DNA of 64,000 nucleotides from Ostreococcus lucimarinus (taxonomy: Eukaryota), in assembly GCA_000092065.1 (NCBI GenBank), contig CP000590.1. One strand, 5' to 3'. The notes below the pieces were generated by a model. The model saw nothing but the letters and a program-made list of their open reading frames with translations, was not told where the DNA came from and made no database searches. A program made the translations under genes and the position numbers. The stretch's first letter is position 1, and each line of letters opens with the position of its first letter. Shown one piece after another: positions 32,960-36,160 of the stretch.

Positions 32960-35900
32960 CTACGAAGCCTTGTTGAGGGAGAGAATCTTCAGATGGCCGC
33001 GGGAATTGGCGGCGAGAAGGTGTTTGGAGTTCGGAGACCACACGACAGATGAGATAAATCCACCCTTGTCGCGTCTGTTGTGCGACATCGGCGTCGGCTT
33101 GTCGGCGAAGCCGTAGTGCGCAACGGGAGAGGATGCATGTTTCGCGTACACGTGCACGATGTTGTCTTCCGAACCGCACGCGATGTACCCATCAGCGTTG
33201 GTGCTCAACCCGACGAAGTTCTTCTCGTTGGTGTGGCCCACGTACGTTCGCACGCACGCCGTTCTGGGATCGTTTCTCTTGATGTCCCAAAGCTTGAGCG
33301 TGTTATCCGTCGACGCCGAAACCAACTCATCGCCGACCCAGTGCACGTAAGAAACGGCCTTACGATGGCCTTGCAGCGTCATCAAAGGCGTGCTCGGCTG
33401 GCGAAGGTCGTACACATGGATCCTGTGATCGGCGCTTCCGATGGCGAGCATATGTGCCGACGTCGGGTGGAATTTCACCGAGCACACGTTGGCGCGGTTT
33501 TGAAGCGTGCACACGCCTTCCTTCGTCGTCGTGGAAAAGATGCGAACCGTACCGTCGTCAGACGCGCTGGCAAGCTTAGTCGGGTCGATGTGGCTAAAGT
33601 CGATACTCCACACTCGTCTTCTGTGGGTGGTGTTCTCCCAGGTGGACGTTTCTTTCTGCACATCCCAAAGTTGTACGACGCCTTGATAATCACCAGACGC
33701 GATGGATTGCTTCACGTACGGGTTGTAGCACAACGCCGAAACCTTGGAGTGCGCTTCAAACTCCACCGCTGGGCAGTGCACGCGCGCTCCTAAAGTCATC
33801 ACCGCACTCGTCTCGTATACGCAAATGGACTTGCTCGTACCCGCCGTAGCGAACAGCTCGCCATCCCGATCCCAGCTCGCGCAACACACCATGGAATTAT
33901 TTGCCGCGAAATCGGCGAAGTCGCCGCCTATCGAGGCGCACCGCTTGATGGAAACCGCGCGAGTCACCAAACATATTTCGTTCTCAAACTCTTCCAGAGC
34001 GTCACGAACGGCCGTAGTATCGACGCCATCCGCTCGAACGCGTTTCAACCAAGCGGCGTCCGAATCGCCCTTAGTGCCGCCCTCCTTTATCGCCACGGCG
34101 CACTTGTCGAAGAGACCGCGCTCTAAATCCGCGAACACGGCCGGTTCGAGCGATTTGGGCGACTTGAACGCCGTGTGTACGACTGAATCAAGATCCTTGA
34201 GCGTCAGAGTCTCGTCGTCGTAGCACTCCATCGCGTGTTCGACGACTCTCGCGCGTTTGCGATCAGGCGAATCAGAGTGCTCTGAAGCGCTCCCTTTGGC
34301 GACTCCTGCTTCGGCGAGCAAAACGTCGAGCATTCCGTGAGATTGCGTCAACTCGCGCAGTTGAGAATCTCTGGCCGTTCGTAAAGTCTCCAACACTGTC
34401 TCAAGACGCTTCAAAGTCTCCAAGCGTCGCTCAGTCTCCACGCCGTGCGCGCGCGCATCACCCGCCACCGTTCGCAACCGCTCGCTCGCGTCTCTCGCGG
34501 TGGCGCGATCTTTTTGTCTAAGGAGGGAGACGACAACCTTGGCGGCGGCGAGCTCGCCCGTCATCGCGCGCTTTGCGAATCCACTCATGGTGATGACTTT
34601 CTCCAGCGCCTTGGCCGGGTAGTCAGCTTCGTACATCGTGACGAAGACGTCGGGCCAGAACATGTTGAGAATCACCAAGCCGACAACAAACAGAGGGTCT
34701 TGATCGCCGAGCTCTTGCGCGAGCTCCACGAATGTGTACTCGTCTTGGTCCGCTGCCACTTGAGAACGCGCTGCGAATGAGATCGCACCTTGAGGACTGA
34801 TGTCGAGGCAGTTGGCGTCGAATAGCTCGTAAGACGCGTACCCGCAACCGTTGACGGCGTCGACGAAGGCGAGAATCTGGCCGGCGACGTGCCAACGCTC
34901 CTCTTTTTGCGTCGCTTGCGCCCCCGCGGATTCGTCGTCAAGCCATTCCCTCAGTCGTCGGGAGCCGTTTTCTAATCCCGACAACGGCGCGGGCAACGGC
35001 CGCACGATGGACTCGGGGACGACGCGACTTCGCGCCTCGTCGCCTTTGCCGGCGTCGGCGGCGTCGATGACCATTTTCACCACGCTCCCTTGCGACACAT
35101 TATCCATCTGCTGCGCCGCAGTAGGCGCCGCAAACGGATACGCGGCGACATCCGCCTTGACACTCGCTCCAGTCGCGGCGAAACTCAGCGTGGAGTTGTT
35201 TCTAGGCAAAGTCGGCGACGGCGTCGGCGACGGCGACTTGGCCGTGGCGTTGGCGTCTTCGCTACCCATCCCCTCCGGCACGTGCTCGGGCACCGCCGGC
35301 ACGCCGTGCACTAACTCCCCTCTATCTTCGTCTTCGTCTTCTAAAATCTCTTCCCCGTTTTCAAACCGCGGCACCGCGCGCGACGACTGTATCTGCGACT
35401 TTCTCCACACGTGCTGCCACATGTGCTTGACGGCTTTTCTACTCACGGGTTTAAGCAAATAGTCTTCCGCCCCGTATTGAATGCACCTAAACACCGTATC
35501 GCTGTGCTCGTTCGCACTCATCATGATAACCGGCATGTCTCGCAATCGCTCGTCGTTGCGCACTATTTGCAACAGCGCCGGTCCGTCGATGCCCGGCATC
35601 ATGACGTCGGTGAGCAACAAGTGAAACTCCGTCCCTCGTCTCAACAGCTCCAGCGCCTCTTCTCCCGATTCCGCCGTCGTCACGCGATACCCACACTTTC
35701 GCAATAACGACGACGTTACCGTCCGGCATATCCTCTCGTCGTCCACGACGAGCACGTGCACGTCCGAAGTCGCCGTCGGTCCGTCGCCGCCGCTCGTCGC
35801 GCTCGTTCGCCGCGTCCGCGTCTCCATCGTCCCGTGTCGTCTTCGCTCGTTCATCTCCGTCATCGACTGCGCGCGTCGTCGCGAGGTATCCACGCTCGTC

Positions 35901-36160
35901 GTCCGCGTCGCCGCGCGCGTCGACGCCTCCGCGTCCCTCGACGACGTCGCCGCCATCGGTGCGCGCCCTCGCGTCGACGTCACGCCGTCTCCAGCGCTGC
36001 CGCCCCGCGCGCGTCGTCGTCGCGACGCCGTCCGCGCCGAGCCGTCGAGGACGCGCGGGCGACGATCGCGCGTCGTCGCGATCGAGCGCGCGCGCGGTGA
36101 CGCGCGCGCGTCGTCGTGTGGCGTCGGCGCCGACGCCCCGACACCCGGCCGCGCGGCCAC
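32960..36160 (-). CDS. Response-regulator receiver domain fused to a SPA-like pseudokinase/coiled-coil region and a COP1-type WD40 domain
   Basis: REC domain: [38 protein letters not shown]...[13 protein letters not shown]...PVIMMSANE...LLKP, with the phospho-acceptor Asp retained. Middle: LREWLDDE...[42 protein letters not shown], a SPA pseudokinase-like region, then a coiled coil. C-terminus: a WD40 region colinear with COP1 ([44 protein letters not shown]...[52 protein letters not shown]...[27 protein letters not shown]...[35 protein letters not shown]). The start codon is uncertain; alternatives are [16 protein letters not shown] near 35850-35880. Confidence 0.75.
   Translation of the reverse strand: [1066 protein letters not shown]

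Follow-up and report, generated by a model that had tools for sequence, protein, structure and literature searches.

Does a single gene of Ostreococcus lucimarinus couple a two-component receiver to the scaffold of a COP1/SPA-type ubiquitin ligase and, if so, to which of the two families does its product belong? The question is raised by an open reading frame (ORF) on the minus strand of the 64,000-nucleotide stretch analysed here (the window; GenBank assembly GCA_000092065.1, contig CP000590.1), to which all coordinates refer. A first-pass annotation, made from the letters alone, described this frame as a receiver fused to an SPA/COP1-type scaffold whose activity could be gated by phosphorelay. 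The best explanation of the whole, which we consider probable though well short of certain, is that the gene is the O. lucimarinus ortholog of chlorophyte SPA1 and encodes a COP1/DDB1-CUL4 adaptor switched by phosphorelay at Asp185.

One gene and its limits

A six-frame scan shows that 32960..36160 (minus strand) is one open frame, 1066 codons long, with no in-frame stop over 3.2 kb. Every peptide quoted in the first-pass annotation is present in this frame, and the claim of one ORF at 32960-36160 is upheld. The start is a table-11 GTG, the first ATGs being codons 69, 100, 103 and 112. In codons 1-60 the GC content is about 0.8 at all three codon positions (GC1, GC2 and GC3), whereas elsewhere in the gene GC3 exceeds GC2; the first 60 codons therefore look non-coding. 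Through the rest of the ORF, linker included, GC3 is 0.62-0.85. The published gene model starts at M100 of the ORF, while metagenome gene callers choose M69, giving 998 amino acids. The true protein length is thus 967 (or 998) residues and not the 1066 first assigned, a figure that stems from the table-11 GTG start. The gene is laid out as follows.

32960..35863, minus strand: coding sequence of the REC-WD40 / SPA1 ortholog, Ol10g03450; 967 amino acids plus stop, single exon (Table S3 of PMC12704426)
35864..36160, minus strand: upstream part of the table-11 ORF, from the GTG start, with the alternative ATG (codon 69) at 35956; AlphaFold2 (AF2) per-residue confidence (pLDDT) below 40, unconserved between species; probably a 5' leader or a short N-terminal extension

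Table S3 of PMC12704426 (ISME J 2025) lists the REC-WD40 gene of O. lucimarinus as Ol10g03450, at 585,448 -> 582,545 of chromosome 10 (2904 nt). The Ol10g03450 protein is identical to the ORF from codon 100 over the approximately 400 residues displayed, including a 13-residue stretch that differs in the closest metagenome variant, and 2904 nt corresponds exactly to 32960..35863. Because the protein sequence is identical over the displayed stretch and the coordinate spacing matches, the gene under study is identified as Ol10g03450 on chromosome 10 of O. lucimarinus. A second model, XP_001420221.1 of NCBI, has its DWD boxes at residues 151 and 192 according to the entry in supplementary file 7 of PMC5749748. 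Given these positions it appears to cover the propeller only, which would explain why the receiver fusion was overlooked in that 2018 survey of DWD proteins.

An apparently propeller-only NCBI model, together with a long and disordered linker, is what might lead one to suspect an annotation or assembly artefact, in which an adjacent receiver gene and SPA-WD40 gene were joined by the six-frame ORF finder. We give this next to no credence. Against it stand the absence of any in-frame stop over the 3.2 kb, a GC3 that is uniformly high across the linker, and the curated single-exon model already in print. The same unbroken architecture also recurs in at least 14 Ostreococcus-like sequence clusters, in Bathycoccus-like clusters and in dozens of independent metagenome contigs, and the reading frame of the linker between the receiver and the kinase-like part is preserved in all orthologs. 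In a search of 1.84 billion 50%-identity clusters, of which the best 150 representatives were analysed, receiver and COP1/SPA propeller occur together in 24, and 15 of these 24 have a detectable kinase-like region. Named carriers are Gonium pectorale, Astrephomene, Chlamydomonas eustigma, Micractinium, Trebouxia, Elliptochloris, Myrmecia, Picocystis, Prasinococcus and Prasinoderma. The fusion is shared within Mamiellophyceae, where the first-pass annotation proposed to look for it, by Ostreococcus-, Bathycoccus- and Micromonas-like sequences. Taken together, the available evidence assigns the receiver and the SPA-WD40 portion to one gene.

Two of the relatives have peculiarities of their own. 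On a Micromonas-like contig (L007, 6349..10742) an intron splits the receiver after ...LRKCNYR, the kinase-like and WD40 parts lie downstream, and there is a scaffold gap between coiled coil and propeller. One 841-aa receiver-SPA protein (cluster P0390) is listed in EukProt under the haptophyte Diacronema (Pavlova) lutheri, and its 90%-identity cluster also holds a 389-aa member listed under Picocystis sp. ML; the likeliest cause of this double listing is that one dataset contains green-algal contamination.

The receiver domain

35381..35776, minus strand: receiver (CheY-like), ORF residues 129-260; Pfam PF00072, ARR1 structure match and AF2 (beta-alpha)5 fold
35606..35608, minus strand: codon of Asp185, the predicted phospho-acceptor (LLLTD185VMMP), aligned with CheY D57

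Pfam Response_reg (PF00072) matches ORF residues 136-246 with 94.5 bits (cut-off 30.2; E 5.7e-27), and the best structural relative is the receiver of ARR1 (8xat, E 1e-25). The AF2 model contains five strand-helix units at residues 61-192 (numbered from M69), with a pLDDT of 80-93. Residues D140, D141, D185, S215, Y234 and K237 correspond to D12, D13, D57, T87, Y106 and K109 of CheY; the Pfam and ARR1 matches provide independent support. These DD, D, S, Y and K residues are invariant in all nine family members compared, from Prasinoderma to Ostreococcus. The receiver is also the best-conserved domain of the protein, with 89-90% identity within Ostreococcus, 67% to Bathycoccus-like sequences and 59-64% to those of Trebouxiophyceae and Prasinoderma.

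The first-pass annotation was therefore right in taking this for a canonical receiver and not a pseudo-receiver of the TOC1/PRR type, the phospho-acceptor residues being intact. Pseudo-receivers typically lack the acceptor Asp, as summarised in PMC3041508. TOC1 of O. tauri also retains its acceptor Asp (PMC12704426). The annotation went astray in placing the receiver where SPA proteins carry their kinase-like N-terminus: the receiver is added ahead of a kinase-like region, not substituted for it. In structure the domain is likest to that of the type-B ARR (ARR1), and WQHVWR at its C-terminus resembles the IWQHVIRKRR / IWQHVVRKRR of plant hits of type-B-ARR-like (receiver plus Myb) composition. 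The output differs, however, since the plant receivers (ARR1, TOC1/PRR) are joined to a DNA-binding Myb or CCT domain and this one to a ubiquitin-ligase substrate receptor.

An SPA rather than a COP1

COP1/RFWD2 has a paralogous propeller (45.6% identity) with the same VP pocket and the same two DWD boxes, but its N-terminus bears a C3HC4 RING, and it lacks both a kinase-like domain and a receiver. The O. lucimarinus protein, which has no RING, could be imagined as a COP1 ortholog whose RING was swapped for a receiver. Indeed, its propeller is practically equidistant from COP1 (46-50% identity) and SPA (47-50%), and its top PDB matches are COP1, no SPA structure being among the matches. We nonetheless consider such an origin highly improbable. 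A COP1 RING+coiled-coil profile matches the protein in its coiled-coil part only and finds no counterpart of the RING; residues 1-700 contain only 7 Cys, with no zinc-binding spacing; and no RING family is found among the best 25 of the 39 Pfam families matched. Furthermore, a kinase-like remnant of the SPA type lies between receiver and coiled coil.

Neighbor-joining (NJ) trees of the propeller point the same way. The receiver-bearing proteins form one clade, with 100% bootstrap in the widest sampling. In three trees this clade adjoins the streptophyte SPAs (bootstrap 99, 80 or 45%, depending on the taxon set) and in none does it fall within the RING-COP1 clade. Chlorophytes with a receiver-bearing protein also have a COP1-like paralog. 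For example, Myrmecia bisecta possesses the receiver-bearing P0226 and a separate COP1-like protein, P0304, inside the COP1 clade, so that receiver-SPA and COP1 are paralogs within one genome. Because the protein has no RING, branches outside RING-COP1 and, with varying support, next to SPA, and keeps a kinase-like remnant, its sequence identifies it as an SPA ortholog. Only half of the original label, "SPA/COP1", therefore survives, and the WD40 phylogeny suggested at that time keeps the protein outside RING-COP1 in all three NJ trees and pairs it with SPA with support varying from 45 to 99%.

A 394-aa fragment of the early-diverging streptophyte Mesostigma viride (P0233), which is without its N terminus, has a propeller that groups with Prasinoderma, and with Picocystis when that is included, and not with land-plant-type SPA, although with weak support.

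A decayed kinase-like domain and a long helix

Between receiver and propeller lie four segments.

35003..35380, minus strand: acidic, Ser/Pro/Ala-rich disordered linker, ORF residues 261-386; AF2 pLDDT below 50 at residues 192-318 (M69 numbering)
34457..35002, minus strand: vestigial SPA-type kinase-like domain, C-lobe only, ORF residues 387-568; identified by hhalign, motifs and AF2/Foldseek
34310..34456, minus strand: long single helix, ORF residues 569-617; AF2 residues 501-549 (M69 numbering), heptad-like leucines
33956..34309, minus strand: second linker and helical pre-propeller segment, ORF residues 618-735; AF2 disordered at 553-603 (pLDDT below 50), helices at 605-665 (M69 numbering)

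The first linker has no Pfam match and only 32-51% identity among Ostreococcus clades. The domain that follows is related to the SPA kinase-like domain. When the middle region of Mamiellophyceae is compared with SPA kinase-like domains by hhalign, the probability is 79-95.5% (E 1.6e-5 to 1.5e-8), and it is colinear with the SPA motifs LRxWL, LHIFRQIV..AH.QG, RPS.F, WYTSPEE, DIYSLGVLLFELF and LLHPDPxxRP. A middle-region profile of the whole family matches the C-lobes of PERK, HRI, PKR and GCN2 (best E 8.7e-19). In the full-length AF2 run, which used a 25-sequence alignment, residues 320-500 (M69 numbering) form a compact, mainly helical domain with a pLDDT mostly of 74-94. A separate model of ORF residues 386-568 has a pLDDT of 89 and a predicted TM score (pTM) of 0.88, and the best 50 PDB matches that Foldseek returns for it are all protein kinase domains (query-normalised TM score 0.47-0.62). 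The kinase assignment rests on this profile-profile and fold evidence, obtained with other SPA rows in the alignment, which the AF2 fold may partly reflect.

The middle domain taken alone has no Pfam match, Pkinase included, and no GxGxxG, HRD, DFG or APE motif occurs in residues 251-730. ELFDANCL occupies the position of the kinase HRDLKPxN. There is no N-lobe, the region upstream of the C-lobe being disordered in the AF2 model. Since profile and fold match kinases, yet both N-lobe and catalytic motifs are missing, sequence and model together describe the domain as a decayed, non-catalytic kinase C-lobe. The SPA-like pseudokinase region of the first-pass annotation is thus genuine as to homology and reduced to a C-lobe remnant as to extent. 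Likewise, of the Pfam composition then expected (Response_reg, Pkinase-like, WD40), the first and last are recovered, and the kinase likeness emerges through hhalign and Foldseek in place of Pkinase.

The erosion appears to be a feature of Mamiellophyceae. Identity of the kinase-like domain is 30-69% within Ostreococcus, 23% to Bathycoccus-like sequences and 13-17% to Trebouxiophyceae and Prasinoderma, and the SPA kinase-like motifs are far better kept in Micromonas, Trebouxiophyceae and Prasinoderma than in Ostreococcus; the Prasinoderma region even scores with Pfam Pkinase (E 7e-7). On the Micromonas-like contig L007 the motifs read AAPEE, ECFALGVMMVEMCWP and LLHPTPRNRP.

Downstream of this domain, AF2 predicts one 49-residue helix (501-549, M69 numbering) with heptad-like leucine spacing. 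Its identity within Ostreococcus is 61-73%. The COP1 RING+coiled-coil profile gives weak matches at ORF residues 513-607 and 635-664 (whole-protein E 3e-4). The model makes a coiled coil for COP1/SPA oligomerisation probable, so that of the coiled coil announced between the kinase-like part and the WD40 repeats the long helix is in place and its coiling is likely. The second linker contains a basic KRAR patch, within a DRKRARV motif, which is a possible nuclear localization signal.

The WD40 propeller

32963..33955, minus strand: seven-bladed COP1/SPA-type WD40 propeller, ORF residues 736-1066; COP1 matches, AF2 pLDDT about 90 at residues 668-998 (M69 numbering)
33401..33448, minus strand: DWD box 1, residues 905-920; aligned with the AtCOP1 DWD box 521-536, listed for XP_001420221.1 in the supplement of PMC5749748
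33278..33325, minus strand: DWD box 2, residues 946-961; aligned with the AtCOP1 DWD box 563-578, listed likewise

Pfam WD40 propeller families cover approximately residues 750-1064. Residues 719-1062 match Arabidopsis COP1 (7vgg) with E 7e-85 and 45.6% identity over 333 aligned residues; the match to human COP1 has E 3e-77 and that to RUP2 E 4.5e-44. Within Ostreococcus the propeller is 75-82% identical, falling to 54% with Bathycoccus-like sequences and to 46-50% with Trebouxiophyceae and Prasinoderma. The VP-peptide pocket of AtCOP1 consists of K422, Y441, W467 and H528 (bioRxiv 10.1101/568618), and the equivalent residues here are K806, Y825, W851 and H912. The COP1-like propeller with its substrate-binding blades, as first described, is therefore confirmed. 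The DWD pattern, a 16-residue box ending in WDxR/K (or YDLR), occurs twice, indicating that two predicted DDB1-binding (DWD) boxes are retained.

Published precedents

Both the gene and the receiver-SPA architecture have already been published, contrary to the novelty that the first-pass annotation implied; the exact gene is in print as REC-WD40, Ol10g03450 (PMC12704426). That paper names REC-WD40 as one of four further proteins of O. tauri that are putative response regulators, finds it in all Mamiellales and co-expressed with CRY-DASH in three genera, and groups it with the putative regulators that lie downstream of LOV-HK, Rhod-HK and the histidine phosphotransfer protein (HPt). Its members are Ol10g03450, ostta10g03410, Od09g00190, Ostme12g00180, Bathy11g03700, Mipuc01g07200 and Mipur07g01070. 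According to the same authors, WD40 effectors are unreported for plant response regulators. They describe a receiver plus WD40 only, with no mention of SPA or COP1; what the present analysis adds is the orthology to SPA1, together with kinase remnant, coiled coil, VP pocket and DWD boxes.

The second precedent comes from Chlamydomonas reinhardtii. Gabilly et al. 2019 (PMC6717296) describe chlorophyte SPA1 as an N-terminal canonical CheY-like receiver, a kinase-like domain of Ser/Thr type and WD40 repeats, and propose its control by a sensor histidine kinase. Phosphorelay gating of a COP1-SPA/CRL4 adaptor is therefore a hypothesis that these authors published for chlorophyte SPA1. CrSPA1 (Cre13.g602700) and CUL4 have been shown genetically to repress LHCSR and PSBS upstream of CrCO (PMC6717296), and a missense allele in the kinase-like domain of CrSPA1 is loss-of-function. 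CrSPA1 has the same domain architecture as the O. lucimarinus gene. Its function is genetically proven, whereas the O. lucimarinus protein is known from sequence and has a much more decayed kinase-like domain. Orthology to CrSPA1 rests on the Volvocales relatives of the latter and on the statement in PMC6717296: the receiver-bearing proteins of Gonium, Astrephomene and C. eustigma share the 100%-supported clade with the O. lucimarinus protein. These relatives were reached by the cluster-representative search and a cluster look-up; a protein-database search with the chlorophyte kinase-like profile brought up only bacterial kinases and short pieces that are probably single exons, and no CrSPA1.

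In the literature searched, the gene identifiers and the name REC-WD40 occur in no paper besides PMC12704426, and a receiver on algal SPA1 only in Gabilly et al. 2019; reviews of COP1/SPA (PMC8024647, PMC7748024) leave the receiver unmentioned. The equation of REC-WD40 with SPA1 thus appears to be absent from this literature.

Arabidopsis SPA1-SPA4 share with the protein the order of kinase-like domain, coiled coil and COP1-type WD40 repeats and possess a DWD box. K767 and W812 of Arabidopsis SPA1, which are needed for its function, correspond to K806 and W851. The plant SPAs differ in having no receiver, their N-terminal region being reported to bind phytochromes and cryptochromes, and in a kinase-like domain that scores with Pfam Pkinase, whereas that of O. 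lucimarinus has no match.

A phosphorelay-switched ligase adaptor?

By analogy with Arabidopsis and Chlamydomonas, the SPA1 ortholog would pair through its coiled coil with a RING-COP1 partner and dock on DDB1-CUL4. SPA and COP1 form heterotetramers in Arabidopsis, and their interaction has been reported in Chlamydomonas. By the same analogy, the adaptor would present VP-motif transcription factors (CONSTANS-like, HY5-like) for ubiquitination, with the effect of repressing outputs of light and of photoprotection or photoperiod. From the sequence of the receiver we infer His-Asp phosphorelay gating. Phosphorylation of Asp185 would turn the ligase adaptor on or off, as its anatomy suggests, and could do so through altered packing of the receiver on C-lobe and coiled coil or through a shift in oligomeric state. 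O. tauri has exactly two histidine kinases (the photoreceptors LOV-HK and Rhod-HK), a single HPt and five receiver proteins, and the two kinases are common to all Mamiellales (PMC12704426). Judging from this parts list and from the anatomy of the protein, the phosphate may reach the receiver from LOV-HK and/or Rhod-HK through the single HPt. Blue and green light would thereby reach proteolysis directly.

It is conceivable that the receiver works without phosphorylation, as a constitutive interaction or dimerisation module like the pseudo-response regulators of plants and certain atypical response regulators, and that light acts through direct binding of a photoreceptor (e.g. CRY, UVR8) to the propeller or C-lobe. 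Plant cryptochromes, phytochromes and UVR8 do regulate COP1/SPA by binding the VP pocket directly; that pocket is conserved in the O. lucimarinus protein, and the co-expression of REC-WD40 with CRY-DASH across three genera (PMC12704426) would fit. Yet this leaves it difficult to account for a receiver that is the most constrained domain and whose DD, D, S, Y and K are invariant in all classes sampled, from Prasinodermophyta to core chlorophytes, when pseudo-receivers typically lose the acceptor Asp. We regard a phosphorylation-free receiver as unlikely, though it is the alternative to be taken most seriously.

Several observations weigh against the phosphorelay-switched SPA1 adaptor. No experiment shows phosphorylation of the receiver in any alga, and the work of Gabilly et al. 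(PMC6717296) is without receiver-domain mutants. In the full-length AF2 model (pTM 0.44) the receiver is not placed with confidence against any of the other domains. The sister relationship to SPA drops to 45% bootstrap with wider sampling in what is a crude NJ analysis, and a middle-region profile built from Mamiellophyceae only, searched against the PDB, ranks PERK first yet with E 0.5, which is non-significant on its own. The kinase-like domain is badly eroded here although it is important to the function of SPA1 in both Arabidopsis and Chlamydomonas, so that the function of the Mamiellophyceae SPA may have shifted. Finally, a RING-COP1 partner is unconfirmed in the O. lucimarinus genome. 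A COP1 ortholog has been reported for O. tauri (CAL53135), and the best COP1 match given for O. lucimarinus in the supplementary data of PMC5749748 is XP_001417064.1; both are candidate partners.

In a metagenome scan for such a partner, the sole RING-coiled-coil-WD40 ORF of about 60% GC to be recovered is at 1004..2935 (plus strand) of contig L015, a near-duplicate of L014. This intronless ORF of 643 amino acids, on a contig of approximately 60% GC, contains the COP1 motifs GHRKTVSYV, SASTDSTLRVWDL and GHTNERNFVGL, has 38% propeller identity to chlorophyte COP1 and joins the COP1 clade weakly (NJ). Its sequence could be that of a divergent picoalgal COP1. As evidence of COP1 in O. lucimarinus it is not usable, since the metagenome contig is of unassigned origin.

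If there were no RING-COP1 partner, the protein might be a phospho-regulated substrate receptor of DDB1-CUL4 (DCAF), or a sequestering scaffold, docking on DDB1 by its own DWD boxes. Two intact boxes, a decayed kinase-like domain, a COP1 partner unconfirmed in the genome and the unassigned origin of the L015 ORF are all compatible with this. We rate it as improbable, and somewhat more so than a receiver working without phosphorylation. The coiled-coil helix, with its weak likeness to the COP1 coiled coil, is conserved at 61-73% identity within Ostreococcus, the literature reports COP1 orthologs from both O. tauri and O. lucimarinus, and SPA is found in heterotetramers with COP1 in Arabidopsis and reported to interact with it in Chlamydomonas.

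DDB1 and the gene neighbourhood

23336..26935, minus strand: DDB1, the CUL4 adaptor on which the SPA1 ortholog is presumed to dock, a neighbour gene of 1199 amino acids; 1031 bits, E=0 to human DDB1

The product of this gene scores 1031 bits against human DDB1, as against 169 bits for SF3B3, so that its assignment as DDB1, about 6 kb away, was correct. A DDB1-family gene also lies 6-7 kb from the SPA ortholog on contigs of two Ostreococcus clades (L001, L005) and on a Bathycoccus-like one (L006), where orientation and some intervening genes have changed relative to Ostreococcus. The L006 copy is confirmed as DDB1 (E 5.6e-222), and those of L001 and L005 are known by their RSE1/CPSF_A Pfam families only. 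PfkB, a PEX7-like WD40 protein, NUDIX, cyclophilin, epimerase and GAPDH genes are further conserved neighbours. Because most of the neighbours are likewise conserved, the SPA-DDB1 linkage is read as ordinary synteny. A functional cluster of the two genes, which the first-pass annotation had hinted at, is rejected.

Three genes around the SPA ortholog deserve a brief description. Between it and DDB1, at 29373..30407 (plus strand), is a 344-aa WD40 protein whose most specific PDB match is PEX7 (3w15_A, E 1.4e-57), with an alignment that begins at residue 6 in both. By sequence it is probably the PTS2 receptor PEX7, unrelated to CRL4. A gene at ~31900..32790 (plus strand), within the table-11 ORF 30628..32790, encodes a protein that combines a zinc finger of RanBP2 type (WRCAECNNSNFSWRKSCKRCG) with an RRM-like region and a long tail rich in Gly, Tyr and Arg, a composition resembling FUS/TAF15; contig L001 has a faint RRM_1 match at the same place. 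This gene is convergent with the SPA gene, the two stop codons being approximately 170 bp apart. Directly upstream of the SPA gene, at 37134..38159 (plus strand), is GAPDH (341 amino acids), which adjoins it also in L001 and L005 (Ostreococcus) and in the Micromonas-like L007.

Evolution and significance

Prasinodermophyta branch before the split of Chlorophyta and Streptophyta, according to phylogenomics. Receiver-bearing relatives are found in Prasinodermophyta (Prasinoderma, Prasinococcus), Picocystis, Mamiellophyceae, Trebouxiophyceae and Chlorophyceae, and the streptophyte SPAs sampled have no receiver. The simplest way to read this distribution is that the receiver-SPA fusion was probably already present in the ancestor of green plants and disappeared in the line leading to streptophytes.

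More tentatively, and as a suggestion that we ourselves think somewhat doubtful, the receiver may have been the original SPA input in the ancestor of green plants. A primordial COP1/SPA-CRL4 ligase would have been switched by photoreceptor histidine kinases via phosphorelay, and streptophytes would have swapped in direct binding of phytochrome and cryptochrome. In Mamiellophyceae, with their decayed kinase-like domain, proteolysis of CONSTANS-like factors would then take its principal light and depth signal from the receiver, to which LOV-HK and Rhod-HK would feed via one HPt. In algae without phytochrome, the route by which light reaches the COP1/SPA ligase has been called 'undefined' (Gabilly et al. 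2019, PMC6717296).

Equating REC-WD40, from the clock and photoperiod catalogue of Mamiellales, with SPA1, from the genetics of photoprotection in Chlamydomonas, joins two separate literatures. O. tauri can be edited by homologous recombination. With two histidine kinases, one HPt and five receiver proteins (the O. tauri count), Ostreococcus would offer a clean system for the published phosphorelay hypothesis. The link to SPA1 gives REC-WD40 a predicted function, predicted partners (COP1, DDB1 and CUL4) and predicted substrates, namely VP-motif factors of the CO-like or HY5-like type.

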